The notes under the pieces are model-generated. The model saw only the letters and a list, made by a program, of their open reading frames with translations, ran no database searches and had not been told where the DNA came from. From a virus, in the IMG/VR virus record IMGVR_UViG_3300007735_000801: a stretch of DNA of 64,000 bases. One strand, 5' to 3'. Both the position numbers and the translations under genes were made by a program. Every line of letters begins with the position of its first letter. Positions within the stretch are counted from its first letter, which is position 1. Of the stretch, positions 230-18,776 are shown piece by piece.

Positions 230-459
230 ATTGTAGTCCACGGATATGCCCATTTTTGCAATTCGATTTGTTCAGCCACAAACAGTTTAAGTTTGCGTGT
301 GCTTACCAATAGTGTGCCTCTGTTGTGATGAGTGAGTTTGTACATCCTCACCTTTTTGCCATTCGGCGTTGAGAACATAATAACAGATTTTATTTTCAAG
401 AATTTCCATCCTTGCTGTTCAAGCAATGTCCTGCATAATTTCACACTAAGTTCAGTCAT
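226..459 (-). CDS. hypothetical protein
   Basis: 77 aa ORF overlapping its neighbours in the operon. Confidence 0.6.
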   Translation of the reverse strand: MTELSVKLCRTLLEQQGWKFLKIKSVIMFSTPNGKKVRMYKLTHHNRGTLLVSTRKLKLFVAEQIELQKWAYPWTTI

Positions 460-3709: not shown

Positions 3710-4132
3710 CTAACATAATACTTTCTCCTGTAATCCTAAACTTATTTTCTGATCCAACACATTGTGTTTCATCCAACGACTCCTGACAATATATCTGATT
3801 ACAGTAGGAACTAGACGCTTGCCCTTTGTGCCACACTCTGTGTCGAGCATGATCCAGTCCCTTTCCGTACCAATACAGCCCCACAACTCCTTGATGGTGT
3901 AGCGATTAGTATAGAATCTGCCTTCTTCTGCCATATCCATGATGTCAACATACCAAACGCCATCTTGCAGAACGGCATGACCACGATAGAAGGTGTAGTC
4001 CCATACGCCATACTCATCAGGTTGCTCTGCCTTTTCCTGATAAGTCCATTGCCACAGCGCATCATGGTGTTTCACACGATTGGCTTGAAATTCATCGCCA
4101 CACTTCAGAGTCTTTATGATACGGTCTTTCAT
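3710..4132 (-). CDS. hypothetical protein
   Basis: 140 aa ORF with RBS AAGGA; WQWTY motif weakly resembles the paralogue family. Confidence 0.65.
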   Translation of the reverse strand: MKDRIIKTLKCGDEFQANRVKHHDALWQWTYQEKAEQPDEYGVWDYTFYRGHAVLQDGVWYVDIMDMAEEGRFYTNRYTIKELWGCIGTERDWIMLDTECGTKGKRLVPTVIRYIVRSRWMKHNVLDQKISLGLQEKVLC

Positions 4133-4138
4133 AATAAT

Positions 4139-4387
4139 TTAATCCTTTCGTTTCTTGCCATGCTTCTTTCTGTTGTAACACGCTGAATGGTATCTCCAAC
4201 ATCCACCACTATTTTCCACAGAGATTTCCGTGTCAATATAGATTTGTTTGCCGCATTCGTCGCACTCGTATCCTGCACATTCGGCGCAAGCCCATCCGTC
4301 ATCGCTTGGAATACGATTCACGAACTTGCCGTAGGGAAATGCGGTACTTGATCCGCAATGCACACATGGGTCGATTGTGTTGCTCAT
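4139..4387 (-). CDS. small zinc-finger protein
   Basis: CxxC (CVHC, CAEC, CDEC) and HxxC motifs. Confidence 0.65.
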   Translation of the reverse strand: MSNTIDPCVHCGSSTAFPYGKFVNRIPSDDGWACAECAGYECDECGKQIYIDTEISVENSGGCWRYHSACYNRKKHGKKRKD

Positions 4388-4758
4388 GTTGGCTCTTTGT
4401 AGTCTGTTATGATGTCTGATATGGTAAGTTGTCGTTTTATATCTTCCACGGCTTCACTCGGAGTCATGCCGTGTCCGACCATGCCTTCAATTTTGCCTAC
4501 AGAGTACGCTTCACGCTTACGCCTAGCAATGTAGGACACACTCTGTCGAACACGATAATAATCGCCAAGTCCTTGATCGGTACATTGCTCCACTTCCCAA
4601 CGGAGTCGATTCACCGCACTTTCTTCGGTTGTGCCGTGTCCGACTAGATCATCATGCTCTAAAGACTCGGCAAGGAATGTGGTAACCTTTACGATATCAA
4701 AACCGTAGGTGTCGCTGAACACATTGTCATCGGGGTATGGGTAAGATTTGTCGATCAC
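4384..4758 (-). CDS. protein with two HicB-N-like (G-x-G-x-T-x-x-[ES]-A) repeats
   Basis: LVGHGTTEESAVNRL and MVGHGMTPSEAVEDI; GTG start at 4758 with GGAGG RBS. Confidence 0.55.
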   Translation of the reverse strand: MIDKSYPYPDDNVFSDTYGFDIVKVTTFLAESLEHDDLVGHGTTEESAVNRLRWEVEQCTDQGLGDYYRVRQSVSYIARRKREAYSVGKIEGMVGHGMTPSEAVEDIKRQLTISDIITDYKEPT

Positions 4759-4922
4759 TTGAATGCCTCCGATAACTGAATGTACTTCCATTCTTCGCCG
4801 TCGAGTCTGTCGTGCCAACACACTTCCTCTACGGCTTGCTCTGTGGGGTAGGCAGAGTGGGGTTGCCATTCACCCCAAATACGACTCTCCTCATCCAATC
4901 TGCGAACTAATAATAAAAACAT
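4755..4922 (-). CDS. small acidic hypothetical protein (55 aa, not in the ORF track)
   Basis: MFLLLVRRLDEESRIWGEWQPH...LSEAFK; TAATG and GTGA overlaps with neighbours. Confidence 0.5.
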   Translation of the reverse strand: MFLLLVRRLDEESRIWGEWQPHSAYPTEQAVEEVCWHDRLDGEEWKYIQLSEAFK

Positions 4923-5221
4923 TATTTGCCACCTTTCTCTGTAAGTTGTCGATTAAGATCATGCAATGCACCTTCACGAGTATCTCCACGACCTACGCAG
5001 TCGTTCTCTCCGTCTTGGAATGCTGAGAATACGGTGACTGGCTTGACCCGAACTACGCAGTCCTGCCATACGATAGGGTCTGTGACATTGCGATTCCATT
5101 GCCTGACGGCTTCACGCAGGTTGGCTTCGGCTTCAAACGAAGTGCCGCCTGTGCCAACCAAGCCATCCTCTTGTCGTGCTTCAAAACCGATGTGTTGGGT
5201 GATGTGTTGTGTGATTTCCAT
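4922..5221 (-). CDS. protein with two HicB-N-like repeats
   Basis: LVGTGGTSFEAEANL and CVGRGDTREGALHDL. Confidence 0.55.
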   Translation of the reverse strand: MEITQHITQHIGFEARQEDGLVGTGGTSFEAEANLREAVRQWNRNVTDPIVWQDCVVRVKPVTVFSAFQDGENDCVGRGDTREGALHDLNRQLTEKGGK

Positions 5222-5269
5222 GATGTGTAAACGCTTTCTTGGTTAGGGTGTGACAGAATAAAAAGAAAA

Positions 5270-5719
5270 TTATCGGTTTTGCTCGTAAGAGTTGTGGTGA
5301 AGGTGAAGTTCGGTGCGCCAATCATAGGTGGCAGGATCATTACCGTCCCAATGACCATCATTAACAGTAACACCACAGCGACGATCCATGAGTCGTGCTT
5401 CCTGTTGGGCTTCACTCCCATCATAGGGATTAACACCATAAAAGTCTGCAAGGCGGCGTGTGGACTCCTCTTGATTCAGGATCATGGTGTCAGCCTCTAC
5501 CTCTGCCACCGCAGTCCACATGAGGCGGCAACAAGCCATGTCTAATTCGTCGGTAAACCAATAGAGTACATCACGAAACAGGCGATCTGTGCCAAAGCGG
5601 AATACCGCTTTACAGTATCCGTCACCATCATGTCCTGCTGAGTGCAGGGGACGAAGGCGAGCATTGCGACTGGCAAAGGTCTGGGCGAAGTCAGCGTACT
5701 GTGCGAGTGTTGGAGTCAT
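5270..5719 (-). CDS. hypothetical protein (first gene after a cassette promoter)
   Basis: RBS AAGGATAC, 5' hairpin and promoter directly upstream. Confidence 0.75.
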   Translation of the reverse strand: MTPTLAQYADFAQTFASRNARLRPLHSAGHDGDGYCKAVFRFGTDRLFRDVLYWFTDELDMACCRLMWTAVAEVEADTMILNQEESTRRLADFYGVNPYDGSEAQQEARLMDRRCGVTVNDGHWDGNDPATYDWRTELHLHHNSYEQNR

Positions 5720-5747
5720 TGGGTATCCTTGAGTGGGGTGCGATTTT

Positions 5748-5798
5748 GGCGAACATTCGCCGTTTTGAGCATCTTAACCTCGATTTTCACGGTGTCAA
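5748..5798 (-). promoter_or_regulatory. cassette promoter TTGACA-N16-TAAGAT plus 5' hairpin
   Basis: -35 at 5793-5798, -10 at 5771-5776, hairpin GGCGAA-TG-TTCGCC. Confidence 0.8.
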
Positions 5799-6102
5799 AT
5801 GGTAATTGAAGATTTTTAAAAGATTTTTATCGTGTCAGATAGGAAATAGTGGGGCGAAATGGGGCGAAGTGGGGCTGGGATAGGATATGTGGAGTTTTAG
5901 CGTAAAACAGGGGTAAGAGTCTGTGCCTCAACTCGCATCCCCCAACAGCCCTCTCAGAGGCTCTCAGATGCCCTAGGAACTGTCCGTAGCCTTTTTCCCG
6001 CCATCAGCACCCCCCAAGCGTGGACAACGCCCTGCGGCTTTAGATACGCTCTGCCACGATCTGAGGAATCTGAGGAATCTGTGAAATTATTTAATTTTTC
6101 TC

Positions 6103-6130
6103 TTGACTTCTCCGAAATCGGTGGTATACT
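6103..6130 (+). promoter_or_regulatory. plus-strand promoter TTGACT-N16-TATACT, convergent with the array
   Basis: Near-consensus hexamers, AAATCG in the spacer, AT-rich upstream tract; no ORF downstream. Confidence 0.7.
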
Positions 6131-6244
6131 TGGAGCAGACGCAGAGGTGCTACGGCTGTCCTCTGAGCGCACCGAGTTATGGGCGGCTGTGGCGTTGGGT
6201 GGCAACTATCAACAGGCGAGTCCGATAACTGGAATAATAATAAA

Positions 6245-6472
6245 ATAATAAAGCCTCATTCGGTGGCTCTAAGTCAGAGTCGAATGAGGCTCATGGCAGG
6301 GTGTGGCAGACACCTTGCCTGAACTGGGATTTATACCCCGCCTGACACTTTTCCCCCTGTTGAGGGTACTAGGCGAACAACGCAGGGTGAACAGGTGTTG
6401 CTGACACCCATGACAGAGCAGATAGGTGTTGTTTATAAGCACTCACCTACAAGGTTTTTGTATTCGTGTCAT
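6245..6472 (-). ncRNA. candidate structured non-coding RNA (about 225 nt)
   Basis: Lies between a consensus promoter (6479-6506) and a terminator (6252-6291); only a 9-codon ORF; several complementary stems. Confidence 0.6.
6252..6291 (-). terminator. intrinsic terminator
   Basis: AGCCTCATTCG...CGAATGAGGCT stem followed by a T-rich tail on the minus strand. Confidence 0.75.
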
Positions 6473-6478
6473 GCCCCT

Positions 6479-6506
6479 ATTATACAGCCGATTTCCACCG
6501 TGTCAA
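6479..6506 (-). promoter_or_regulatory. promoter TTGACA-N16-TATAAT
   Basis: Perfect consensus hexamers. Confidence 0.9.
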
Positions 6507-6682
6507 GTGGAAAATTAAATTATTATTGTGCAGTCCGATAACTTAGCCGTCCCATAACACCCCCTGCAACTATCAACTGGCGACGCAAAGTCCGATAACT
6601 TGCGGCGAAATAATAATAAATAAAAAACCCCCCTGCCGTTTTACGGGCAGAGGGGTCAGACCTTTCAAAGATCGTCAGGGGA

Positions 6683-7660
6683 TCAGGCGTTCACCGCCAT
6701 CCACGCTTCAGCCTGAGCGTAGGCTTTCTCCTTGATGGTCGAGCCGACCCCGAACAGGTTCGACTCCAAACGCAGGGAGTCATTGCTGTCCTCACCCTTC
6801 ACAGTACGCTCATGATCCACCCATTGGGTGATCGCATTCACAGCCGACCACAGGCTACCCGCAGACCGCATACCTGTCTGCTTTGTGTCAACCCAAAGGT
6901 TGGTACGCCACGCATCCAACACCTGCTCGTAGCGAGTATTGCCACGCCCTGATGCCTTTGGAGTTCCGTTCATGGAGTTATACACCTCCTGAAAGAACAC
7001 ATCCGCACTAGCCGTAGTCACTTCACGCTGTGCCAAACTGTTGCAGAACTTAGTGAAAGACTCAGCCTGTCCCATTCCTGCTTCAACCCATTCCTTGATC
7101 ATGCCAAACCGTGCTTTCGAGCCTGATCCGTGACGAATGGATGCCGAGTCAGCCTTGCCCTTCATACCCGCCAAAGCCATCATGAAAGTGTTCATGCAGA
7201 CAATGCGTTGAGCATTCAAGCCAAGTGTGGTAGCCCAACTCGTATCATGGCTAGTACCAATAAAAAAGTTATTATTAACCACATCACGAGGATCGCCGCC
7301 AATGTTCACCTGACCCAAGTCAACTTGGAAGAAGACTCGTTTGCCATTGTTGATTGAACCCACTTGGGTGCAACTAGTACCGCTGAAGTTAGTGATCTCA
7401 TAGCAGAGATCAGCCAACTCATGGTTCTGAATGGAAGTGTAGCCTTCCTTTGCAACAGCAAACACAAAGCCTGTGTCCTCACGCACAATCGCCCTGTAGT
7501 CACCGCCTGAGTACGCCGCACCGTCAGCACCGCAAGCCACGATAGGCAAGGTGGAAACCTTCCAATCCAAACCTGCCTTCCGCATCATGGAAATCGGGTC
7601 AGCCGTCAAGTTAGCCTTGTCAGCATCAGTAGCATTGTAAAGTTGAATCGTAGAAGCCAT
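6683..7660 (-). CDS. DUF932 family (phage/plasmid-like) protein
   Basis: AGLDWKV, AIVREDTG, YTSIQN, TSHD, RIVCMNT, IRH and GSLWSAVNAITQWVDH motifs. Confidence 0.85.
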   Translation of the reverse strand: MASTIQLYNATDADKANLTADPISMMRKAGLDWKVSTLPIVACGADGAAYSGGDYRAIVREDTGFVFAVAKEGYTSIQNHELADLCYEITNFSGTSCTQVGSINNGKRVFFQVDLGQVNIGGDPRDVVNNNFFIGTSHDTSWATTLGLNAQRIVCMNTFMMALAGMKGKADSASIRHGSGSKARFGMIKEWVEAGMGQAESFTKFCNSLAQREVTTASADVFFQEVYNSMNGTPKASGRGNTRYEQVLDAWRTNLWVDTKQTGMRSAGSLWSAVNAITQWVDHERTVKGEDSNDSLRLESNLFGVGSTIKEKAYAQAEAWMAVNA

Positions 7661-7691
7661 TCGAGTATCTCCTGAAAGAGTTAGTGAGAAT

Positions 7692-7749
7692 TGTCAGCAG
7701 GAACTTCCTGCCGACACGCCGATTGTACGCTCAATTTGCACGGTGTCAA
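7692..7749 (-). promoter_or_regulatory. cassette promoter TTGACA-N16-TACAAT plus 5' hairpin
   Basis: -35 at 7744-7749, -10 at 7722-7727, hairpin 7692-7716. Confidence 0.85.
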
Positions 7750-7941
7750 ATTGAATTTGCAATTTTTTAAAATATTTTTATATCCTTTATATCGGCGCAA
7801 GATAGAGTCCGATAACATAGCCGAGTCCGATAACCCCTGCGACTATCAACACGCCGCCCCCTGAGTCCGATAACTCAGGGACGGCAAAAACCCCCCTGCC
7901 CTGTTGGGGGCAGAGGGGGCTGTCACACCCGTGATTGGTGT

Positions 7942-8424
7942 TTACTTCTTCATGTACTCCGTGATGTAGCCGCTGATCGTTCCGTCACCGTTCACAATGC
8001 CCTTGCCATAGGCTTCGATCAGCCACGCCATCGCCTCAGCAATCTTGTTCAACTGCTTCACATTCAGCGTGTCCATGAACTCCTTCGCCGCCCACCCTGT
8101 CATTTCGTCACCGCTATGGCTGAACACAACCAACTTCATACCAATATGCGACGAATAGAACTCAGGGAAAATCTCCATCGAGATGTTCTCAGGAGAGCCT
8201 TCGAATGTCTTGCCGAACAACTCGTTGTCAGGATCACAGGCGAACTTAAACCCATCCTGATTAGCGTTGTCCTTCAAGAGTAACACTTCGCCAACCTCAT
8301 CGCCAATGAATCCGTCCAACCCTGCGTTGGCAGGGGCTTCAAGCATATTCACCACATGGTTGTACATTCGTGAAGCGATTGACTTCTTGTTTGCCATAGT
8401 ATTGATGTCTGTGAGTGAGAACAT
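7942..8424 (-). CDS. hypothetical cassette protein
   Basis: RBS AAAGG, own promoter, terminator near 7887-7919. Confidence 0.8.
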   Translation of the reverse strand: MFSLTDINTMANKKSIASRMYNHVVNMLEAPANAGLDGFIGDEVGEVLLLKDNANQDGFKFACDPDNELFGKTFEGSPENISMEIFPEFYSSHIGMKLVVFSHSGDEMTGWAAKEFMDTLNVKQLNKIAEAMAWLIEAYGKGIVNGDGTISGYITEYMKK

Positions 8425-8452
8425 GAGTAGCCTTTCTGAAAGAGTTGAGTGA

Positions 8453-8505
8453 GTGTCAGCACCTTGCCGACACCGTCATTATGGGGTCGATTTTCACCGT
8501 GTCAA
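8453..8505 (-). promoter_or_regulatory. cassette promoter TTGACA-N16-CATAAT plus 5' hairpin
   Basis: -35 at 8500-8505, -10 at 8478-8483. Confidence 0.8.
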
Positions 8506-8624
8506 GTAAAATATTAAATTATTTTTTTCTTTAAAGAAATCCGCAGAGTCCGATAACCACTGCGACTATCAACAACCGTCCCGCTCACCCAACAAGGGGA
8601 GCAGGAGCGGTTGCCCTCTTTAGA

Positions 8625-8894
8625 TTATTTGGCGAACAGTCTGCCGCTGATGCGTTGCCGCCTACGCTCAGCCGCCTCCTCAGGCGTACCCTTGCTGTCC
8701 TCGATCTGAATGCGAACATCACGCAACTGACGCTCCAAGTACTCCACCTGTTCACCCAACTCACGCCGAACCGATGCTCCGAAACTTCCCTCCTCAGCCA
8801 TAGCGTCATAGGGAACATTCGCAAGGTCATCCAAGCGAGTCAGACAATCCTTGAGTGTATTCTCAAGCCACCCCAACCTGACTAACAGATTCAC
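8625..8894 (-). CDS. hypothetical coiled-coil protein
   Basis: GTG start overlapping the upstream stop (GTGA). Confidence 0.65.
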   Translation of the reverse strand: MNLLVRLGWLENTLKDCLTRLDDLANVPYDAMAEEGSFGASVRRELGEQVEYLERQLRDVRIQIEDSKGTPEEAAERRRQRISGRLFAK

Positions 8895-9241
8895 GCCGCA
8901 CCCCCTTCGTTGACAAAGGCGGTATTCTTGCATTGGTAGCGAACACCACCACGGAAATACGGCATATCGAATGTGGATTCAAATGTGGGAGGTGAACACT
9001 TGTTCACCACCTCTTTGGTACGGCAATTACGCCACCCTGCCATGTATGCCCCCATGCGATTGAGCAGTTCACGCTTGCTGACATGACCATGCGTCAGCAC
9101 ATCCACTTCCGCAGACCCGACATAGTCCACTAACGACACCTTACCAAACGACCCAAACGATATGCCGTATGCTTCGCCTGTGTGCAGGTTGAGTGTGTCG
9201 CAGAACTGCTTCACTTGCATTTTTGTGATTCGAGTACCCAT
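8891..9241 (-). CDS. hypothetical phage protein
   Basis: RBS AGGAG; RITK..LN..GHVSKRELL pattern. Confidence 0.75.
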   Translation of the reverse strand: MGTRITKMQVKQFCDTLNLHTGEAYGISFGSFGKVSLVDYVGSAEVDVLTHGHVSKRELLNRMGAYMAGWRNCRTKEVVNKCSPPTFESTFDMPYFRGGVRYQCKNTAFVNEGGAA

Positions 9242-9273
9242 TGTTAGTTGCTCCTAAAGAGGTTCAGTATCCA

Positions 9274-9323
9274 CGGCAACCCTGCCGCTGTGTAGATTCT
9301 ACAGCCGATTTTCACCGTGTCAA
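9274..9323 (-). promoter_or_regulatory. cassette promoter TTGACA-N16-TAGAAT plus 5' hairpin
   Basis: -35 at 9318-9323, -10 at 9296-9301. Confidence 0.85.
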
Positions 9324-9496
9324 ATTAAATCTTAAATAATTATTTGACCAATAACTCCTAGAGTCCGATAACCCCTGCGACTATCAACACGACGAAAAAT
9401 ACCCTCCCCGAAGGGAGGGCGAGGCGAACCTCTTTGTTGTTTGAAGAAGTAGGGCGGGGTAGCCCCGTGGCTTGCCCCGCCGCACCCTCTTTGTAC

Positions 9497-9772
9497 TTAC
9501 ACCTTCGTAGCCTTACCTTGCGCCCATTGGGCGAGGCGAGCATACGAAGCCTTACGCAGGCGATTAGTTACCCACTTGTCGCTCTTTGGGTAGAAGCGAT
9601 TCGCATAGCCGCAGGCAGTCGCACCCTGCTCCAAGACAAAGCGGCAACCCTCATCATCGCTTGCACCGACCAACGCAAGGGCTTCGGCATTGTGCAGACG
9701 GCGTGGGTGTTGGGCAACCTCATGAGCAAACGCTACTCCCGCAGTTGACAAGTTAAGTGTTGAGTTTTCCAT
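9497..9772 (-). CDS. hypothetical cassette protein
   Basis: RBS AAAGGATAC, own promoter and terminator. Confidence 0.8.
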   Translation of the reverse strand: MENSTLNLSTAGVAFAHEVAQHPRRLHNAEALALVGASDDEGCRFVLEQGATACGYANRFYPKSDKWVTNRLRKASYARLAQWAQGKATKV

Positions 9773-9806
9773 AATCTAGTATCCTTTCATTAAGAGTTTA
9801 GTGAGT

Positions 9807-9857
9807 GTCAGCACCTTGCTGACTGCCGCATCATAAAGCCAATTTGCACCGTGTCAA
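9807..9857 (-). promoter_or_regulatory. cassette promoter TTGACA-N16-TATGAT plus 5' hairpin
   Basis: -35 at 9852-9857, -10 at 9830-9835. Confidence 0.85.
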
Positions 9858-9986
9858 ATGGAAAATTAAATTATTTTCGAGTCCGATAACTTACGAGTCC
9901 CATAACCCCTGCGACTATCAACACCGAAGCCTAGCCGCCCCGAAGGGCGGCAGGGACGAATCCTTTTCGGCGTTGGGGTTATCGGC

Positions 9987-10532
9987 TCATGCGTGTCCCC
10001 CCCTGATGGCGCACCAAATCACCGCTTGCGTTGCGGCGTTGCTCCATCCCATGCCAACCGCAACCGCAGTTACTGCCGACGCTAGGGCAAAGTATTTGCC
10101 CTTGCTTAGACTCTTGCTAGAGTCTAGCCCCGCCGCTTTCACCATCCAAGTGTCCACCACCACCGCCGCCATATCCCCCGCAATTGCACGGGCAAAGGCG
10201 TTGGTCTTTAATCCCTTCAACGCCGCAAATCCAAGGCGAGTACTCGCTTGCGCCATGCGCAAGTTATTCCGCAATCCCTTAGGCTTGCCACCCATTGCGA
10301 ATAACAAGGCTTGCGCCTTATTATTATTCCACTTATTGCGTGGACTGAATGAGGATACAACGGATGCCGCCACTTCCAATGTCCAAGGCGTAATTGTCGT
10401 AAGGTGAATAGCGAAGGCTTGCGCTTCGCAGTACCATGCCAAAGCATCCGCCAAGGCTTGTCCCTTGAGGGACTGCGCCAAGGTAGCGTACTTGGAAGTG
10501 GCGGATTCAAAGAGTTTAGTATTGAGTTTCAT
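9987..10532 (-). CDS. HhH-GPD glycosylase-like phage protein (DUF7178-like)
   Basis: SFSPRNKW..N, GLKTNAF, VVVDTWM and QAVIW motifs. Confidence 0.6.
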   Translation of the reverse strand: MKLNTKLFESATSKYATLAQSLKGQALADALAWYCEAQAFAIHLTTITPWTLEVAASVVSSFSPRNKWNNNKAQALLFAMGGKPKGLRNNLRMAQASTRLGFAALKGLKTNAFARAIAGDMAAVVVDTWMVKAAGLDSSKSLSKGKYFALASAVTAVAVGMGWSNAATQAVIWCAIRGGHA

Positions 10533-10566
10533 GATGGTATCCTATAAAGAGTTTAGAGTAAGATTA

Positions 10567-10617
10567 GGCAACGGCGTTGCCATGCGTCGATTGTAAGGTC
10601 GAATTTCACCGTGTCAA
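10567..10617 (-). promoter_or_regulatory. cassette promoter TTGACA-N16-TACAAT plus 5' hairpin
   Basis: -35 at 10612-10617, -10 at 10590-10595. Confidence 0.85.
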
Positions 10618-10785
10618 ATTAAATCTTAAATTATTTTTCTTTAAAGAAAAAAATTATTATCAGGACCTTGGCGACTATCAACATTTGGTGAAGTCCGATA
10701 ACCATGGCAACTATCAACAGGCGCAAAAAGATCAGCAGGGTAGCCCCGTGGCTTGCCCTACTGATCCCTCTTTGTTGCGTTGTCT

Positions 10786-11001
10786 TTACTTCACGCTTAC
10801 CACCACGCCTTGATCATCAACCTTTACCGTGGCGTACCAACTGTGTGGCGCAGGATACTGTGGACCTTCCACACAAACCGTTTCACCGTATACCGTGCTA
10901 CTTCCCATCGGACTTGGTTGCCACACTCCGACTTTCACGCCTTGCGCAATCGCTTCTTTGAATTGCTTCTTTGTCTTGTAGTTTGTCGTGCAGTAAGCCA
11001 T
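10786..11001 (-). CDS. conserved small phage protein
   Basis: MAYCTTNYKTKKQFKEA..VEGPQYPAPHSWYA; RBS AAGGATAC. Confidence 0.8.
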   Translation of the reverse strand: MAYCTTNYKTKKQFKEAIAQGVKVGVWQPSPMGSSTVYGETVCVEGPQYPAPHSWYATVKVDDQGVVVSVK

Positions 11002-11032
11002 TTGAGTATCCTTTATTAAAGAGTTGAGTGAT

Positions 11033-11082
11033 ATGGCAGAGTTGCCATGCGTCGATTGTACAGTCGATTTCCATCGTGTCAA
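11033..11082 (-). promoter_or_regulatory. cassette promoter TTGACA-N16-TACAAT plus 5' hairpin
   Basis: -35 at 11077-11082, -10 at 11055-11060. Confidence 0.85.
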
Positions 11083-11242
11083 ATTAAATCTTAAATAATT
11101 TATTGTCCAATAACTACTGTGACTATCAACATTCACAGAGTCCGATAACCCTGGCGACTATCAACAGGCGAAAAATTTTCAAAAATTCTTTAAAGAAAAA
11201 CCCACCCGCCAAACTTACGGCGGGGGGTTTCTTTTTTGCTCT

Positions 11243-11593
11243 TTAGTAGTGAGGGTCTCGATAAGTGTCTCGGAAGCCAACCGAAACGTATTGTCCACCC
11301 GTTGTCTTCCATCGACCATTGCTTCGCAGTTTTACTGTGATTGGACTTGCGCCTTCCACGGTCTCGTAGGTTTTTACCTTCTCGCTACCTTCGCCACCCG
11401 AAACGTCCCAAACGACCCGATCATGTGTCATCGTGAATTGCGTAATCTGTCCCTTGCGCTTGCCACTCTTGGCAAAAGTAACGCTTGTAACCGTGCAACC
11501 GTAGCGATCCGTCCACCACAATTCGGTGGCAGGACCACCGACAAAGGGAGCAGGCATTCCGTCGATCATGTTCGCATAAACGTAGTTGATCAT
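11243..11593 (-). CDS. conserved hypothetical phage protein
   Basis: PFVGGPAT..TDRY..RSNGRW..G.RDTYRDPHY pattern; RBS AAAGGA. Confidence 0.8.
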   Translation of the reverse strand: MINYVYANMIDGMPAPFVGGPATELWWTDRYGCTVTSVTFAKSGKRKGQITQFTMTHDRVVWDVSGGEGSEKVKTYETVEGASPITVKLRSNGRWKTTGGQYVSVGFRDTYRDPHY

Positions 11594-11622
11594 TTCAATC
11601 CTTTCAAAGAGGGGAAGTGAAA

Positions 11623-11672
11623 TCGGCAACGTGCCGACATCGTCAGTATGGAGCCAATTTTTACCGTGTCAA
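11623..11672 (-). promoter_or_regulatory. cassette promoter TTGACA-N16-CATACT plus 5' hairpin
   Basis: -35 at 11667-11672, -10 at 11645-11650. Confidence 0.8.
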
Positions 11673-11872
11673 ATTAAATCTTAAATTTATTTCAAATTAT
11701 TTTTCTTTAAAGAAAAAAAAAATTATCGGACCCTGGCGACTATCAACATTCACAGAGTCCGATAACACATGGCGACTATCAACATCCGCTCCCTGGGGAG
11801 GGGAGGGATGCTGGAGATCAGTCTGGGTATCATCCCCATCCACTCCCCCGAAGGGGAGGGATGGGGGAACTC

Positions 11873-12187
11873 TCAACCTCCCATGCAGGTTGGGAAGTAC
11901 CGTCGCATCACATCCATCGACTTCGAAGTTTCAGGATCAGTCGATTTCAGGAGGGCGGCGATTTCGAACTGTGGAACCTCAACTACAAATTCTTTGTGGC
12001 AGGTTCCTGCTTCTTGAGTGAGCCAAGCGTTGATGTGTTTGGTGGTTGTGCGTGAGTACCTTTCCTTGGCACGAACAAATCCAAAGTCCCGTACAAACGC
12101 CGCTACGGGAGTCGAGTACGATACGAACACAGTCGCATTTGTGAGGGTTAGAGTCATTTGGTTGTTTCCGAGAGATGTAATCTTCAT
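11873..12187 (-). CDS. conserved hypothetical phage protein
   Basis: SYSTPVAA..YSRTTTKHINAWL motif; RBS AAAGGATAC. Confidence 0.8.
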   Translation of the reverse strand: MKITSLGNNQMTLTLTNATVFVSYSTPVAAFVRDFGFVRAKERYSRTTTKHINAWLTQEAGTCHKEFVVEVPQFEIAALLKSTDPETSKSMDVMRRYFPTCMGG

Positions 12188-12221
12188 GGCTAGTATCCTT
12201 TCAAAGAGGGGAGAGTGAGCA

Positions 12222-12272
12222 TTGGCAACCCTGCCAACAAGAGCAGTATGGAGTCAATTTGCACGGTGTCAA
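12222..12272 (-). promoter_or_regulatory. cassette promoter TTGACA-N16-CATACT plus 5' hairpin
   Basis: -35 at 12267-12272, -10 at 12245-12250. Confidence 0.8.
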
Positions 12273-12486
12273 ATTAAATTCTCGATTTTCGTTCTTTAAA
12301 GAAAAAAATATTTTGTCCAATAACCTTGGCGACTATCAACATTTGGTGAAGTCCGATAACAGGTGGCGACTATCAACATGCGAAAAAAAAGACCGCCCCC
12401 TCGGAACTCCACGGAGGGGGGGACTTCTCTTTTGCTTGGTAGAAGTAAGGCGGAGCAGCCCCATGGCTTGCTCCGCCGCACCCTCT

Positions 12487-12729
12487 TTAGTCCTTTTCCT
12501 TGAATGTGTTATTTGCCATGAAAACTTGAAGTGATGGCAACGCCTCAATCAAGCGTATCCATTGACCCTTGTACAGGGTCACGGGAAACCGACCCAAGCC
12601 ATATACGCTCAAAGCACCCTTCTCGGACACCTTGAAGCCGATTGCCTTCACCTTGGATGCCGCCGCCTCCGCCGCCGCCGCTTTGAGTGCGGCATTCTCC
12701 GCCATTAACATTTCTAGTTGACTTGCCAT
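12487..12729 (-). CDS. conserved small protein (KVSEKGALSVYGLGRFPVTLYK family)
   Basis: Recognisable conserved-hypothetical motif after a coiled-coil N-terminus. Confidence 0.8.
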   Translation of the reverse strand: MASQLEMLMAENAALKAAAAEAAASKVKAIGFKVSEKGALSVYGLGRFPVTLYKGQWIRLIEALPSLQVFMANNTFKEKD

Positions 12730-12759
12730 TTCTGACCTTTCTGAAAGAGTTGAGTGTCA

Positions 12760-12810
12760 TCGGCAACCCTGCCGACAAGAGCAGTATGGAGTCAATTTCC
12801 ACCGTGTCAA
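12760..12810 (-). promoter_or_regulatory. cassette promoter TTGACA-N16-CATACT plus 5' hairpin
   Basis: -35 at 12805-12810, -10 at 12783-12788. Confidence 0.8.
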
Positions 12811-12948
12811 ATCAAATTCTCAATTTTCGTTCTTTAAAGAAAAAAAATATTATCAGGACGTTGGCGACTATCAACAATGCCAGAGTCTGATAACCTCTGG
12901 CGACTATCAACATCCGCTCCCCTGGGGAGGGGAGGGATGCTGGCGAGC

Positions 12949-13287
12949 TCACCGACCAATTTCACCTTCGCCCTTTCCCCAATCTTTGTGCGCCTCATAC
13001 GCTTCCAGCTGAGGATCAGAATCCTCACCCCATCGTGCATCCAAAGCTCGCTCAACCATTGCGCCGCAATATTCTTTAACCTGCTTGAGAGTCTTGAATT
13101 CTTTGGCGATTTCATCAGCTCCCCAACATTCCACGATGCTGTCGCCACCACGCTCATAGTTTCGTTCACACATATCGTAGACTGAATCAACAAATGCAAT
13201 TTGTTCATTTGTTGGGTTGGATTTGGCAATCCATCGGTTGAGTGTTGCGCCATTATCATCAGTAAAGTTTCTTGATTTCATGTCCAT
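12949..13287 (-). CDS. hypothetical acidic cassette protein
   Basis: RBS AAAGG; own promoter and downstream hairpin. Confidence 0.8.
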   Translation of the reverse strand: MDMKSRNFTDDNGATLNRWIAKSNPTNEQIAFVDSVYDMCERNYERGGDSIVECWGADEIAKEFKTLKQVKEYCGAMVERALDARWGEDSDPQLEAYEAHKDWGKGEGEIGR

Positions 13288-13338
13288 TTGTAGTGCCTTT
13301 CAAAGAGGGGTTTTTAAAGAGTAAACGAGTGAGCGTGT

Positions 13339-13367
13339 ATTATACCAAATTGTGTATTAAATGTCAA
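13339..13367 (-). promoter_or_regulatory. promoter TTGACA-N17-TATAAT (no 5' hairpin)
   Basis: Perfect consensus hexamers. Confidence 0.85.
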
Positions 13368-13464
13368 ATGAAATTCTTAATTTTCGTTCTTTAAAGAAAA
13401 AAAAAATATTATAGGACCCTGCGACTATCAACATCCGCTCCCCCGAAGGGGAGGGATGTGGCGA

Positions 13465-13647
13465 TCAGTCTCGATTCCATCCGAAGTACTCCCTCTCTTC
13501 CAGAGGGATTGGAGCAGCCACTTGGGGCTTGGGCTCTCCATACTTGGCGAGCCTTCGCTCTCGCCTCGTCAGAGGAACTTCCACTTCCGCCTTTGGTTGG
13601 GGGGGCTGTTCGCCCCCCCTTCCGCTTCTTCGTCCTCTAGGACTCAT
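13465..13647 (-). CDS. small hypothetical protein
   Basis: ATGA-coupled to the Csx16-like gene. Confidence 0.55.
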   Translation of the reverse strand: MSPRGRRSGRGGEQPPQPKAEVEVPLTRRERRLAKYGEPKPQVAAPIPLEEREYFGWNRD

Positions 13648-13979
13648 ACTTCACCCCCCGCCTTCATGACCACGTAGGTATTGAAACCTTGGAAGGCTTC
13701 CCTAACTTCTTCGATACCCAATTCTTTCCCACGTTGATCGGGGGTGAGTTGTAAAGTGGCTTCCGTTACGCTTGCGGCGAGTGCCGCAAGGTGGAGGGGA
13801 AGAACGCCCAACACATTCTTGCCCGTTACAAGGGCGGCGGTGGCATGGGCAACCACAGGCGTGGTGGCATCAAATGCGCCACGCTCAATCAAGAATTCGA
13901 CCAATCCTGTGTGGCGAGTTACAATCAGATCAATCAGTACGACGGGGGGATTTGTTGACGAGCAATCGACGATACGCAT
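13644..13979 (-). CDS. csx16: Csx16-like (Cas_VVA1548 family) putative cyclic-oligoadenylate ring nuclease
   Basis: IVTRHTGLVEFL, VAH, VLGVLPLHLAA and QRGKELGIEE follow the Csx16 motif order and spacing; RBS AAAGGA. Confidence 0.75.
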   Translation of the reverse strand: MRIVDCSSTNPPVVLIDLIVTRHTGLVEFLIERGAFDATTPVVAHATAALVTGKNVLGVLPLHLAALAASVTEATLQLTPDQRGKELGIEEVREAFQGFNTYVVMKAGGEV

Positions 13980-14008
13980 GAGTAGATCCTTTCAAAGAGG
14001 GGAAGTGA

Positions 14009-14059
14009 TATGGCGAAGTTGCCATGCGTGAAGTATACACTCGATTTCCACGCTGTCAA
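14009..14059 (-). promoter_or_regulatory. cassette promoter TTGACA-N16-TATACT plus 5' hairpin
   Basis: -35 at 14054-14059, -10 at 14032-14037. Confidence 0.85.
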
Positions 14060-14243
14060 ATGGGGGAGTCCTGTCCGAACAGTACACAGCGTTATGGGAC
14101 TCCCACGAGCCTCCTGGGGCTAGCACACATACCTGCAAGACTCCAAGGACGGCAGAGGACGGCAAACCACGCAGACCCCCCCCACCCCCATACCCCCCTA
14201 TTCGATTCCTGAGGATCCCCCCTCTCTAATTTTTTTTTTTTTT

Positions 14244-14251
14244 TATAAATA
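14244..14251 (+). promoter_or_regulatory. T4-type late promoter TATAAATA
   Basis: Exact consensus 4 nt before the GTG; equivalents at 14802, 15282, 15667 and 18762. Confidence 0.75.
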
Positions 14252-14255
14252 TATC

Positions 14256-14795
14256 GTGCTATCCTTTAAACAACATATAACGGAATCTTTACATATTCAC
14301 CCTTCTCCAGATGATCCTCATGATGTAGCAAAGTCCAATTTTACTTACGGAAAAGTTATCAAGAATGATATGATGGATACAGATAAATTAATTGGAGGAA
14401 TTAGTGATACCGATAAAAAAGAACAAGAACGAGTCTCAGATTTAGTTGCAAAAATGTCTAACCCTAAAACTGGTCATATCTCCAGACTAATTGTAGACAC
14501 TGGTGGAAATGTGCTGGAAGGACAACATCGTCTTTCTGCAGCAAGACAACTAGGACATAAAAAAGTTCCAGTTACGATTATAAAGGATTTAAGTTCTGGA
14601 TTTGATGTTTCTAAAATTGAAAAAGAAATTTCCGCAAAAGGGTATCACCCAGATCACGTACACCAAATAACACACCAAATACTAGACATGATTCACACAT
14701 CAGGTTCTCCTGGCAAAGCATTATCTTCCTATGAATTTCCTCAAGGTCACGAAGCGGCATTCATTGCAGGATTGAATGCGGCTATTCCTCAATAA
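14256..14795 (+). CDS. putative internal head protein with ParB/Srx-like domain
   Basis: N-terminal MLSFKQHITE (capsid-targeting-like); LIVDTGGNVLEGQHRLSAARQLGHKKVPV. Confidence 0.75.
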   Translation: MLSFKQHITESLHIHPSPDDPHDVAKSNFTYGKVIKNDMMDTDKLIGGISDTDKKEQERVSDLVAKMSNPKTGHISRLIVDTGGNVLEGQHRLSAARQLGHKKVPVTIIKDLSSGFDVSKIEKEISAKGYHPDHVHQITHQILDMIHTSGSPGKALSSYEFPQGHEAAFIAGLNAAIPQ

Positions 14796-14813
14796 TATTA
14801 TTATAAATATTGT

Positions 14814-15290
14814 ATGCTATCCTTTATTCACTACTTGGTGGAAACTGTTGTGCCACATGGTTCCGACCATTACCTGCCACCAGAACCTGGAACCACTCCT
14901 ATTCCAGAAGGTCATGTCAGACTATATCACCAAACATCAGCGGAAAATATTTCCAGCATAATCAAGACTGGTTTGAGTATTGGACACGCAAGAGGCATAG
15001 AAGGACCAAAATCCATATACGCAGACCGAACTGGATTCTATGGATCTCCTGGATCCAGACCCACTATTGAATTTTCTGTGCCTGCCCATAAATTTGATTC
15101 TCCGTTTGTTCTGCAAGACGTACCTCCTGAATCGTTTATTGCGGTTCATCTGCCTTGGCACACTCAAGCCAGATACATCGGCAGAGATCCTGATTTGCTG
15201 AAATCTGCAAAGGCAGGAGAACTAGATCATTTGCTGGATCAACCAGACTACGGACCTGCCATAAGATACCATAAAGGAAAAACTAAATAA
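14814..15290 (+). CDS. putative internal head protein, ADP-ribosyltransferase-like
   Basis: MLSFIHYLVE; RLYHQTSAENISSIIKTGL..SIY motif. Confidence 0.65.
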   Translation: MLSFIHYLVETVVPHGSDHYLPPEPGTTPIPEGHVRLYHQTSAENISSIIKTGLSIGHARGIEGPKSIYADRTGFYGSPGSRPTIEFSVPAHKFDSPFVLQDVPPESFIAVHLPWHTQARYIGRDPDLLKSAKAGELDHLLDQPDYGPAIRYHKGKTK

Positions 15291-15294
15291 TATT

Positions 15295-15660
15295 ATGCTA
15301 TCCTTTATTCGCTATCTGACAGAAGCCAAATCCAGATACCCTGATGTTCCTTTTTTACACCCTGGTCATCTACCAGAGACTCACCCTCTCTACAATTACG
15401 CAGAAGAGAATCATTTTCGCTGGGTTACTCCTGATGGCTACGGTGTGGAAAGTGTTACTGGTGGTGGTCGTGGAGTTTTCGGTCCAGGTCATACAGGACA
15501 GTACACTGACGGCGACACCTATATCGCAGACGCAGAAAGTGATGCTCACGCCAGAGCCATTATTCGGCAACACCGAACACTTTCAAATCCTCTGTTAGGG
15601 TATCCTAACCATAAAGGGCACCGAGCTGCTGTGGAAGCAGAAGCCGTAAAAACTAAATAA
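15295..15660 (+). CDS. putative internal head protein
   Basis: MLSFIRYLTE N-terminus; late promoter upstream. Confidence 0.7.
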   Translation: MLSFIRYLTEAKSRYPDVPFLHPGHLPETHPLYNYAEENHFRWVTPDGYGVESVTGGGRGVFGPGHTGQYTDGDTYIADAESDAHARAIIRQHRTLSNPLLGYPNHKGHRAAVEAEAVKTK

Positions 15661-15681
15661 TATTATTATAAATATGGTACC

Positions 15682-18078: not shown

Positions 18079-18744
18079 TTATTTCTGATTGTATGCCGTA
18101 TCAATTGCTTTGTAATAGGCAGGATCTTGTTGACGTGAAGCATTGCGCCAATATTGAAGAAATCTTTCACGATCTTGTGGCGACATTTCCTTGGTGTCGT
18201 CAATCTTCAGTTCACGCATCTTGCCACGCATCACACCAACCGCCATTTGTTGATACGCTTTATGGTATTTTTCATCACTCAACGTACCACAACCACCAGG
18301 ACCACATGCGTCTCCTATCTTTACGTTTCCTAACATTCTTTTTCCTTGTGCCACATATTGGTTTACGTAATCTTCCTGTCCTGTAAACAGATCTGGATAA
18401 TTCTTTAAAAAACCAGCAGCAGTGGACTTGGTGATTTGAACTGGACCGTAGGCAGTGGATTTACCTGTTTTATCTTTGGTTCTGATATAGTGGGCTTGGT
18501 TATAGTCTAGAGCATTTCCAATATCAGTTCCTCGGTGTTCTCCAGCAACAAGAGCCTGATATAATTTTATATTATGTTCGCCGCCAAAGTGAGCATACGG
18601 ATCCACTACTGGAGCAACTTCAGTGGTTGGAGTAGCTGGAGGTGCGGCTGGTGGTGCCTGGGCTCCACCAGCCATTATACTACCAGCCAAAGCAAAGGGA
18701 GCCAACATAGAACCTTCTTGAAGATATTCGATAAATGATTTCAT
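18079..18744 (-). CDS. putative internal head protein, lytic transglycosylase-like
   Basis: MKSFIEYLQE; ALVAGEHRG..STAYGPVQITKSTA lysozyme/SLT-like motifs. Confidence 0.65.
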   Translation of the reverse strand: MKSFIEYLQEGSMLAPFALAGSIMAGGAQAPPAAPPATPTTEVAPVVDPYAHFGGEHNIKLYQALVAGEHRGTDIGNALDYNQAHYIRTKDKTGKSTAYGPVQITKSTAAGFLKNYPDLFTGQEDYVNQYVAQGKRMLGNVKIGDACGPGGCGTLSDEKYHKAYQQMAVGVMRGKMRELKIDDTKEMSPQDRERFLQYWRNASRQQDPAYYKAIDTAYNQK

Positions 18745-18776
18745 ATAAAGTATATATTTAACATAAATAATGGTGT

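Follow-up and report, generated by a model that had tools for sequence, protein, structure and literature searches.

Polar DNA boxes at the cassette junctions of an early-gene array in a distant T4-like freshwater phage as candidate operator-type docking sites

The variable region of an uncultured, distant T4-like freshwater phage holds an array of minus-strand genes in which the same two short words, designated here box A and box B, recur between one gene and the next. What purpose could these words serve? A sequence-only reading of the window (the entire 64 kb stretch of DNA that was analyzed) had envisaged a bipartite site, bound by a dimer or by two proteins, with three candidates: a Xer/dif-like core, an operator or enhancer 5' of the -35 element, and a polar loading or DNA-entry signal. 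The anatomy of the array and its comparison with relatives fit the second of these best. That the boxes are operator-type sites for a sequence-specific protein, which controls or insulates the tandem promoters and may also guide cassette exchange, has in our judgment about an even chance of being correct.

Anatomy of the array and its boxes

Each cassette consists of boxes, an AT-rich tract, a near-consensus sigma-70 promoter, a conserved leader, a single gene and a terminator hairpin. Together, the cassettes make up a PeSL-type (promoter-early stem-loop) array in the variable region of this myovirus, with a GC content of 48-51%, compared to 32-42% for the backbone. The 13 promoters (minus strand, 5771-14059; TTGACA, 16-17 bp, TAnAAT-like), one per cassette, have the first bases of their -35 hexamers at 14059, 13367, 12810, 12272, 11672, 11082, 10617, 9857, 9323, 8505, 7749, 6506 and 5798. 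A leader hairpin, also conserved, and a ribosome-binding site come after each of them, and the promoter at 5798 is without boxes. On the gene strand, the boxes lie 3' of the terminator hairpin of one unit and 5' of the promoter of the next; at every junction a GC-rich hairpin (minus strand, 6245-13465; predicted at -14 to -31 kcal/mol) stands immediately 5' of the first box. Boxes are missing from six further near-consensus early promoters that lie in the window but not in the array, hence they are tied to the tandem array and not to the promoter class.

Box A reads GCGACTATCAACA on the plus strand (TGTTGATAGT(C/T)(G/A)C on the gene strand). It has 16 matches at ≤1 mismatch, all on the plus strand between 6202 and 13433 (0.10 expected by chance; 0/100 shuffles gave 16), and a 17th with two mismatches at 6566-6578, which bears out the earlier count of 17 copies on one strand. 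Box B is AGTCCGATAAC, or GTTAT(C)GGAC(TC) on the gene strand, with 16 matches at ≤1 mismatch (0.74 expected), 15 of them on the plus strand. If any base is allowed at its middle position (GTTATNGGAC, gene strand), the count is 19 direct copies (6220-12894) plus a single inverted one (14091-14100). Four promoter-proximal variants in inverted orientation, GTCC(T)nATAAT (at 10656, 11722, 12849 and 13408), together with a degenerate copy at 6176-6185, likewise inverted, bring box B to about 25 copies, a few of them inverted, where about 20 had been claimed. All copies of both boxes lie in the gaps that separate the coding sequences of the array (6176-14100), and exact A or B is absent from the remainder of the 64 kb window. 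Their restriction to intergenic DNA of this 8 kb region thus holds, chance predicting fewer than one copy. A further element, the palindrome C (TTCTTTAAAGAA), occurs at several junctions.

Each box has sharp limits, is non-palindromic and contains a near-invariant core, 13 bp long in A and 10-12 bp in B. Information content, computed from 64 copies of A and 92 of B at nine loci, is approximately 2 bits at 13 positions in A and at 10 in B, and drops to 0.1-0.4 bits on either side. Box A is strictly polar, with all 64 copies in the same orientation relative to transcription. Neither box matched the consensus patterns of IHF, DnaA, CRP, FNR or Fis. As the array is transcribed from the minus strand, A precedes B on the gene strand: for 16 of the 17 A boxes, a B-type box comes after it in transcription order, 15-19 bp from start to start and most often 16. 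The facing GATA and TATC cores of the pairs, described previously, are indeed present, about 11 bp apart. Successive B boxes are 17 bp apart. The outcome is head-to-tail rows of two to five sites at a pitch of 16-18 bp, running from the terminator hairpin to the AT-rich tract of the next promoter, with spacers that differ in sequence and length. Box centers fall approximately 60-155 bp 5' of the predicted starts (near -62, -79, -95, -114 and -131), the -60 slot being held by palindrome C or a B box. The fixed distance to the -35 element could have been inherited from a common ancestor of the promoter modules, and it is therefore weak evidence for polymerase contact.

The junctions are given here in the direction of transcription, all on the minus strand. 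The right boundary (14064-14104), 5' of the first promoter (-35 at 14059-14054), is devoid of box A; an inverted B (14091-14100, plus strand) and a degenerate direct B (14073-14080) lie within an 8-bp inverted repeat (14064-14071 and 14097-14104), and this boundary is kept in relatives L057 and L021. Junction 1 (13387-13433; -35 at 13367) has A at 13421-13433, inverted b at 13408-13417 and C at 13387-13398. Junction 2 (12830-12912; -35 at 12810) has A at 12900-12912, B at 12885-12894, A at 12864-12876, inverted b at 12849-12859 and C at 12830-12841. Junction 3 (12292-12378; -35 at 12272) has A at 12366-12378, B at 12351-12360, A at 12329-12341, a B variant at 12315-12324 and C at 12292-12303. 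At junction 4 (11703-11784; -35 at 11672), with A at 11772-11784, B at 11757-11766, A at 11736-11748, inverted b at 11722-11731 and C at 11703-11714, an insertion between C and the -35 element moves the entire box set by about 10 bp. Junction 5 (11105-11197; -35 at 11082) has C at 11186-11197, 5' of the boxes, and then A at 11154-11166, B at 11140-11149, A at 11119-11131 and a B variant at 11105-11114. Junction 6 (10637-10719; -35 at 10617, DUF7178 gene) has A at 10707-10719, B at 10693-10702, A at 10671-10683, inverted b at 10656-10666 and C at 10637-10648. Junction 7 (9881-9923; -35 at 9857) has A at 9911-9923 and B at 9897-9906 and 9881-9890; junction 8 (9346-9389; -35 at 9323) has A at 9377-9389, B at 9363-9372 and a B variant at 9346-9355; and junction 9 (8527-8574; -35 at 8505, 160-aa gene) has A at 8562-8574, B at 8548-8557 and C at 8527-8538. 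Junction 10 (7807-7874; -35 at 7749, DUF932 gene) has B at 7865-7874, A at 7839-7851 and B at 7825-7834 and 7807-7816. Junction 11 (6533-6599; -35 at 6506), whose cassette has no clear protein gene, has B at 6590-6599, the A variant at 6566-6578 and B at 6549-6558 and 6533-6542. The left boundary (6176-6229), with B at 6220-6229, an A variant at 6202-6214 and the degenerate inverted B at 6176-6185, adjoins the last terminator hairpin (about 6245-6290), and no minus-strand promoter follows for the next ~400 bp.

Conservation of the boxes and exchange of cassettes

Ten related freshwater contigs use three unrelated core promoter types (TTGACA-16/17-TAnAAT; GTCACA...TATACT; and the extended -10 TGGTACAAT), and A and B are identical throughout. 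Among words common to the three lineages, the 9-mers of the boxes are repeated most often (for example, 40, 12 and 12 copies); any other shared 9-mer has at most four copies in at least one lineage. At the orthologous junctions 5' of the DUF932 gene and of the 160-aa gene, the boxes are kept while spacers and core promoters have diverged, and in a 153.8-kb relative they are confined to its array. Because the boxes are unchanged where the promoters of relatives are not, they are most likely docking sites for a putative DNA-binding protein. They are conserved beyond concerted evolution, and their sharp edges and variable spacers read as the signature of a binding site and not of a homology patch.

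The latter possibility, that no dedicated protein binds and that the boxes are the best-kept patches of a repeated regulatory module, preserved through gene conversion within each genome and selection for cassettes still able to enter any related array by homologous recombination, we regard as rather improbable. Conversion is active, as the promoter spacer is homogenized within each genome, and shuffling of PeSLs through homologous recombination is documented (PMC2839356, PMC4122927). However, homologous exchange would work poorly on islands of 10-13 bp separated by variable spacers, and selection for homology should retain long contiguous stretches and not two bounded words. Furthermore, promoters and spacers diverged between lineages and the boxes did not, and homology requires neither the strict polarity nor the preferred 16-bp offset.

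Cassette order and content vary among the relatives, whereas both flanks of the array are conserved; DUF932 is the sole gene present in the arrays of all three lineages. In differently ordered arrays, homology starts at the outer edge of box A. The 160-aa gene has three different upstream neighbors in six genomes, with similarity that begins exactly at box A, and in L050 a replaced cassette ends precisely at an A box. Alternative joins in virome contigs (8575>12383, 9389>13417, 11784>10725 and 6544>10692) have ends 0-6 nt from a box edge, and call for caution since these are short metagenome contigs with sides of 27-40 nt. The boxes also mark the sites of cassette swaps, as they are the only sequence common to all cassettes in all lineages. 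These boundaries, the restriction of the boxes to the array and its distinct GC content speak for recombination signals, with A and B recognized by a dedicated recombinase or helper that would move cassettes into and out of the array in an integron-like system for early, probably anti-defense, genes; a helper protein was raised as a possibility by the PeSL authors (PMC2839356). We nonetheless consider such signals unlikely. The 153.8-kb relative encodes no tyrosine recombinase, no recombinase was found among the window proteins scanned, and the boxes are not inverted repeats flanking a fixed crossover spacer. Breaks at box edges are also expected from ordinary homologous exchange, because homology ends there. 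Box conservation could alternatively be driven by recombination compatibility and not by transcription.

Signals in RNA, DNA handling and protein docking

We considered whether the boxes act in RNA, either as processing or antitermination signals in read-through transcripts or as targets of a small plus-strand transcript from a conserved promoter at 6103-6130, which has the left-boundary boxes in its path. Some upstream hairpins have a T-run and others adjoin box A directly. Read-through is plausible because a T-run is missing from some, and the predicted 6103 transcript would carry complementary A and B sequences. However, direct reading of the sequence indicates that A and B cannot pair into one helix, their complementary tetramers being in the wrong order, and pairing with the 6103 transcript would be non-contiguous since its boxes come in the opposite order to those at the other junctions. 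No Rfam family matched, and the inverted promoter-proximal B boxes are sensible for DNA and not for an RNA signal. Action in RNA is therefore very unlikely.

Polar signals for DNA handling (Chi-like protection, translocase or loading, a pause in DNA entry, or a Xer/dif-like core) are a still fainter prospect, largely refuted by the anatomy. Every A is on one strand, and the array adjoins a sharp compositional boundary at which two assemblies of relatives break. But the polarity is that of the genes, the boxes occupy set places within promoter modules and never occur within genes, and in G001 the break comes from an assembly overlap in a circular sequence and is not a demonstrated end. Across 185,579 species genomes the composite box pattern gave 38 single hits against roughly 90 expected (our own estimate), which is chance level. 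The loading or DNA-entry signal of the sequence-only reading is thus unsupported, as is a Chi-like signal. The same applies to the Xer/dif-like core, as the arms are not dif-like: they share GATA and two C's (6/13), at a spacing of 15-19 bp, and the 153.8-kb relative encodes no tyrosine recombinase, as noted above.

Operator-type docking sites accommodate the sharp edges, the 16-bp offset and the identity across promoter-divergent lineages, as does the bipartite site proposed earlier. Located at the outer end of the 5' regulatory module that each early cassette carries, the boxes would be read by one protein with two reading heads or by two proteins, and the bound protein would act on the entire array simultaneously. 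We favor a polar barrier combined with promoter control: the protein would halt polymerase leaking past the upstream terminator before it reaches the next, very strong promoter, and it might also, or instead, switch the early promoters off or on as a block. An activator should be unnecessary in the lineage of the window, as its promoters are near-consensus with AT-rich upstream tracts. The first promoter, with no unit upstream, has no A, and the last terminator has B-A though no promoter follows. This contrast is consistent with an inter-unit barrier, and it counts as one observation because the boundaries are orthologous. As for the putative protein, no DNA-binding family was found among the array proteins, and the DUF932 protein gave a confident structure model with no informative fold match. 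Two earlier candidates are weakened: the ParB-like gene (14256), which adjoins the array, is missing from a box-bearing relative, and the winged-helix family of the HTH protein (20199) is also present in a phage without box A.

Comparison with known systems

PeSL cassettes of T4-type phages are already known (Arbiol et al. 2010, PMC2839356; Comeau et al. 2014, PMC4122927), and the A/B boxes are an undescribed additional layer. As in the present array, each consists of a stem-loop terminator, AT-rich tract, sigma-70 early promoter close to consensus, Shine-Dalgarno sequence and small ORFan; tandem repeats of this unit occupy a hyperplastic region in a T4-like genome and are linked to gene insertion, deletion and reordering. 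The described PeSLs have the stem-loop immediately 5' of the promoter, with no further conserved words reported (PMC2839356, PMC4122927). In contrast, 30-110 bp of polar A/B boxes, better conserved than the promoter, intervene here between hairpin and AT tract, in DNA with GC far above the backbone.

The stoperators of cluster A mycobacteriophages are asymmetric, near-invariant 13-mers that recur many times in short gaps between genes and point in the direction of transcription; the L5 gp71-type repressor binds them as a monomer with two DNA-binding domains, and its elongation block is orientation-dependent (PMC9283540). Box A resembles them in being 13 bp, asymmetric and polar in 64/64 copies. 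Stoperators, however, are distributed genome-wide in temperate phages and serve an immunity repressor, whereas the array has two kinds of boxes at a single locus of a T4-like phage without integrase.

Integrons (attC/attI with IntI) share with the array single-gene cassettes at a fixed locus, a junction signal and an order that varies among relatives. Integron cassettes are mostly promoterless, and attC, located at the 3' end, is an imperfect inverted repeat on which a tyrosine recombinase acts in its folded, single-stranded form. The cassettes of the array each have their own promoter and terminator, their boxes are not inverted repeats, and an integrase was not found. The box pair is similar to XerCD/dif in its two ~11-bp elements, short spacer and left element ending in ATAA, but its arms, matching at 6/13 positions and spaced by 15-19 bp, are not mutual inverted copies, and there are at least 17 copies, all within promoter modules. 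Networks of two-site-type operators include the KorA/KorB operators of RK2 and the box A/box B of P1 parS, while the Sal-box/TTF-I sites of RNA polymerase I occur both past the end of the gene and immediately in front of the promoter that follows. The array has no sequence similarity to these systems and no ParB/KorB-type binder linked to the boxes. The logic is nevertheless alike, with two short words, variable in number and orientation, serving many transcription units, and polar protein barriers between strong tandem units, which prevent promoter occlusion, follow a logic that resembles that of the array.

Copy number, placement and the architecture of the cassettes

Two direct, non-palindromic words recur in the intergenic DNA of the array. 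Box A, read on the plus strand as GCGACTATCAACA, has 16 matches in the window at no more than one mismatch (6202-13433; 0.10 expected), all of them on the plus strand, and a seventeenth, more diverged copy lies at 6566-6578. Box B, AGTCCGATAAC, also has 16 matches in the window, 15 of them on the plus strand, against 0.74 expected. When its middle base is allowed to vary, box B occurs 19 times in direct orientation and once inverted (14091-14100); the set is completed by four promoter-proximal variants in inverted orientation and a degenerate inverted copy (6176-6185). Inversion is frequent in the promoter-proximal B boxes. The orientation of box A is the same in 64 of 64 copies over nine loci, with none inverted. 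The B-to-A distance is 16-24 bp. Every copy of A or B lies in a gap separating coding regions, and no exact copy of either was found outside the array in the 64-kb window. The counts, strand bias, variants and pairing given in the sequence-only reading are correct, as judged by these match counts, the placement in gaps and the lack of exact copies elsewhere.

The array genes (5.7-14.1 kb) are on the minus strand, and the order of parts is identical in every unit. In the direction of transcription, the stop codon of the preceding gene is followed by a GC-rich hairpin (-14 to -31 kcal/mol; a T-run may or may not be present) and then by box A, which reads TGTTGATAGT(C/T)(G/A)C on the gene strand. 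A B-type box, GTTAT(C)GGAC(TC), is positioned 15-19 bp after A, start-to-start (most commonly 16), and more A-B or B units often come next. Next comes an AT-rich tract (at seven junctions, the perfect palindrome TTCTTTAAAGAA lies within it), and after it a near-consensus sigma-70 promoter (TTGACA, 16-17 bp, TAnAAT), a conserved leader hairpin with a ribosome-binding site, and one or two small genes. The hairpin was upstream of the first box at 12 of 12 junctions in a scan that also took in terminator-like sites, and the row of boxes separates it from the promoter. Each of the 13 minus-strand promoters agrees with the consensus at 10-12 of its 12 positions and has a spacer of 16-17 bp. Relative to a transcription start that we infer to lie 35 nt farther downstream than the opening base of the -35 hexamer, the box centers fall near -62, -79, -95, -114, -131 and -155, the slot at -60 being held by either the palindrome or a B box. 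Two arrangements in which the boxes themselves would be promoter elements were rejected. With A as the -35 and inverted B as the -10 element of a second promoter, the spacing is inconsistent (12-16 bp); with A supplying a -10 element and B its MotA-like box at -30, only the B-A arrangements fit, and the junctions with a single A-B do not.

Six near-consensus sigma-70 promoters elsewhere in the window have an AT-rich upstream tract and no boxes. Two are on the minus strand, with -35 hexamers starting at 3501 and 5798, and four are on the plus strand, with starts at 20097, 22735, 25227 and 34415. Thus, the boxes belong to the tandem cassette array and not to early promoters generally. At the box-less promoter at 5798, the AT tract is preceded on its upstream side by a GC-rich, TTCGCCCCA-like word of 9 bp in three direct copies (5830-5880, minus strand); these may constitute a different regulatory site. 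No unit lies upstream of the first array promoter (14059), where a short inverted repeat contains one inverted and one degenerate B, and A is absent. At the other end, B-A still follows the last terminator (~6245-6290), with no minus-strand promoter for ~400 bp beyond, and these left-boundary boxes lie in the path of a conserved plus-strand promoter at 6103. The left-boundary arrangement is shared by three related loci (L021, L057 and L032). As the boundaries are orthologous, the pattern at the first promoter and last terminator in the relatives counts as a single observation.

Both edges of the array have further features. The plus-strand promoter at 6103 (TTGACT, 16 bp, TATACT with TG) reads toward the boxes of the left boundary and a bidirectional hairpin (6103-6300), and it is present also in L021, L007/L057 and L032. 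A small RNA predicted from it would be ~150 nt long, with A and B sequences inside and a predicted fold of z = -2.5. The cassette at 6250-6506 (minus strand) has a perfect promoter and a terminator and no convincing protein gene; it has no match in Rfam, it is kept in L007/L057, and a different, protein-coding cassette is in its place in L021 and L032. The right edge (14060-14330) is a sharp boundary with C-tracts, a ~15-nt T-run and a T4-type late promoter (TATAAATA). A box-bearing 153.8-kb IMG/VR relative, G001, both starts and ends at this edge. The ~155-bp overlap of its termini (L108:1-160 and the end of L021) points to a circular assembly that was opened at this position. The contig behind L057 starts ~150 bp from the same edge, which may be either an assembly-breaking sequence or a real genome feature.

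Conservation among relatives and exchange of cassettes

The window comes from a distant T4-like myovirus. It encodes a gp6-like baseplate wedge protein and has other baseplate genes and T4-type tail genes; these share 27-32% identity with proteins of cyanophage and Sinorhizobium phage. Searches of the phage collection at the DNA level, for near and for distant matches, returned no close relative among sequenced phages. The stretch occurs in sequencing runs of metagenomes and viromes from freshwater, lakes and rivers. The GC content of the array region (4000-14230) is 48-51%, compared to 32-42% in the remaining window, and identity to relatives is 92-95% in the backbone flanks but only 72-86% in the array. 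The array genes that match a known family are Csx16/Cas_VVA1548-like, DUF932 and DUF7178; the others belong to none. The first array gene (13644-13979, minus strand) matches Cas_VVA1548/Csx16 (PF09652, E 5.5e-17) with no CRISPR locus nearby, and its product is a candidate anti-defense ring nuclease. Two small HNH-type endonuclease genes lie at 452-982 (minus strand) and 21234-21599 (plus strand), one called by a weak Pfam HNH match and the other by eye from the H...N...H motif.

At least four boxes each were found in G001 (153,850 bp) and in nine metagenome loci, and in G001, as in the window, the boxes are in the array only. Three lineages can be told apart among these relatives, and their core promoters are unrelated: one has the TTGACA type found in the window, another a GTCACA...TATACT type, and the third an extended -10 type, TGGTACAAT. 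A and B are identical in all three. By far the most repeated 9-mers common to the three lineages are those of the boxes (for example, 40, 12 and 12 copies), and no other shared 9-mer exceeds four copies in every lineage. The information content is ~2 bits over the 13 positions of A and the 10 of B, and 0.1-0.4 bits just outside. At the junctions that precede the DUF932 gene and a 160-aa gene, which are orthologous among the relatives, the boxes, terminator and leader are kept, whereas the inter-box spacers and the core promoter have diverged. Conservation beyond that of the flanking intergenic DNA, on which the sequence-only reading had made its proposal depend, is thus seen at these junctions. 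The boxes are real, non-random, polar and more strongly constrained than the adjoining promoters. The 16-bp promoter spacer behaves in its own way: in a comparison of window positions 5798-13367 with the junctions of L014, L050 and L032, it is homogenized per genome. The window has a cggtgaaaatcg-type sequence and the relatives have the cactaaaaaatgg or the gactcgaaaatg type, and this genome-specific sequence points to concerted evolution of promoters within a genome.

Searches further afield were negative. The B-A composite had 38 matches in 185,579 species genomes, each of them single and in unrelated taxa, where we estimate roughly 90 by chance (18 fixed bases, 5 spacings, 596 Gb); single matches at chance level give no clue to the host. 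Neither boxes nor an analogous repeat family was found in L106, which carries a 38% relative of the 160-aa gene, and a full-text literature search with four box words returned only primers in unrelated papers. An action of the boxes at the RNA level is very improbable in our estimate. Rfam at permissive thresholds gave sub-threshold noise only; the RNA-library contigs, of unproven transcript origin, lie on gene bodies with none crossing a box, and are uninformative either way.

In L021 and L057, the DNA on either side of the array is conserved (identity reaches 92-95% over window positions 4001-4154), and the cassettes differ in number and order; content and order vary also in L050 and L014. 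The 160-aa gene has three different upstream neighbors among six genomes, and the similarity of all six starts exactly at box A. In L050, the end of a replaced cassette is exactly an A box. Alternative joins in virome contigs (8575>12383, 9389>13417, 11784>10725 and 6544>10692) end within 0-6 nt of a box edge. They come from short contigs and call for caution, and they represent alternative orders, not the mini-circles that would form if flanking elements recombined. Such break points are what one would expect if the boxes were signals where cassettes are exchanged, as a secondary or alternative role, which we consider unlikely. Homologous exchange would also place break points at the box edge, because homology between junctions stops there. 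That the boxes are purely a protein-free patch of homology is, in our view, distinctly unlikely.

Candidate binding proteins

Two proteins had been put forward in the sequence-only reading as possible partners of the boxes, and the case for each is weakened. The ParB-N-like protein at 14256 (179 aa) has a T4-type capsid-targeting N-terminus, lies downstream of a late promoter and has no relative in the PDB. It is absent from G001, where a different capsid-targeted protein takes its place, and since G001 has boxes, the ParB-N-like protein is unlikely as a conserved partner. A ParB/parS centromere or a KorB-type operator was rejected on the same ground and on the non-palindromic nature of the sites. 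A T4-like capsid-targeting decapeptide opens six otherwise unrelated proteins at 14256-19148 (e.g., MLSFKQHITE, MKPFIEYLVE and MKRFSQYLTE), the ParB-N-like protein included. The sets in the window and in G001 differ, and these proteins are likely packaged and injected together with the DNA.

The second protein, a small winged-helix protein (20199-20483), follows a strong early promoter that has no boxes, and it shows 90% conservation in G001; its position and this conservation would suit a delayed regulator. It has only a weak HTH_39 match, its atlas neighbors are HTH_39 clusters, and its single-sequence model (pLDDT 52) is too poor for a structure search. Homologues occur in many aquatic phage contigs that are devoid of boxes, including a 142-kb contig with no box A, so a link of this protein to the boxes is not specific. 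A zinc-ribbon ORF at 4139-4387 is another candidate. DUF932 is the only gene found in the arrays of all three lineages. Its model is confident (pLDDT 91.8); no Foldseek match was found at E <= 0.001, the best VIA Z of 6.6 is within the range of noise, no DNA-binding or recombinase fold could be assigned to the model, and a literature search returned nothing on its function.

Probable function of the boxes and comparison with known systems

The best-supported reading, to which we give an even chance, is that the boxes are operator-type sites for a sequence-specific DNA-binding protein that acts on tandem early units. The bound protein would serve as a polar barrier between units, as a common switch, or as both. 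A Xer-like role, or one in DNA entry or of the Chi type, is extremely improbable. The resemblance to a Xer/dif core suggested in the sequence-only reading does not survive comparison: A and the reverse complement of B share GATA and two C's (6 of 13 positions) and hence are not inverted arms, and the variable A-B spacing (15-19 bp) contradicts the fixed central region of 6-8 bp of a tyrosine-recombinase site. As to a cognate recombinase, PF00589 has no match in the 153.8-kb relative, with control genomes scoring 14 of 14; this result speaks to a phage-encoded enzyme and does not bear on a host Xer. Other known sites were also rejected. An integron attC is an imperfect inverted repeat on the 3' side of promoterless cassettes, served by an IntI integrase; it is contradicted by the presence of a promoter in each cassette, by the direct non-palindromic boxes and, in the 153.8-kb relative, by the failure to find an integrase. 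In a scan of 6100-14150 with the consensus patterns of common host factors, IHF, DnaA, CRP and FNR sites had 0 matches, and the matches to Fis sites coincide with no box.

The cassettes include the Csx16-like candidate ring nuclease and the DUF932 protein, and the boxes may therefore control both the timing of the first counter-defense genes and the acquisition of new ones. A more ambitious proposal, which we regard as quite unlikely, would make the array a self-contained cassette system of a lytic phage. Early, probably anti-defense genes would form a pool passed around between related phages; each would bring along its own promoter and terminator as well as a two-word signal, universal to the junctions, that a dedicated protein would read both for insulation or regulation and for catalyzing or guiding exchange. 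If true, the system would be a functional phage counterpart of the integron that does without the integron integrase.

By analogy, the closest functional counterpart of box A is the stoperator, the repressor site of cluster A mycobacteriophages. Both are asymmetric words of about 13 bp with many intergenic copies aligned with transcription (17 copies of box A in the window and 64 over the nine loci). The stoperator is bound by a monomeric two-domain repressor that blocks elongation in an orientation-dependent manner (PMC9283540). Membership in this class, which entails a phage repressor that blocks both initiation and elongation, cannot be claimed for box A in a T4-like phage for which no repressor came to light.

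T4-type phages keep fast-evolving accessory genes in arrays of small self-expressed cassettes whose regulation and shuffling are only partly understood. The promoter-early stem-loop (PeSL) cassettes of these phages are clustered in hyperplastic regions and are tied to modular shuffling (PMC2839356, PMC4122927). The present units resemble them in having a stem-loop, an AT-rich tract, a sigma-70 promoter, a Shine-Dalgarno site and a small ORFan gene each, and in occupying a hyperplastic stretch of a T4-like genome, where relatives (here L021, L057, L050 and L014) differ by indels and in cassette order. In contrast, the descriptions of PeSL cassettes have no counterpart of the A and B boxes (PMC2839356, PMC4122927). 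The array thus combines PeSL-type cassettes with an additional, conserved layer of recognition. The authors who described PeSL explicitly left room for a targeted recombinase or helper protein (PMC2839356), and junction words that are polar, sharply defined and better conserved than the promoters are the kind of target that a PeSL-associated protein would need.
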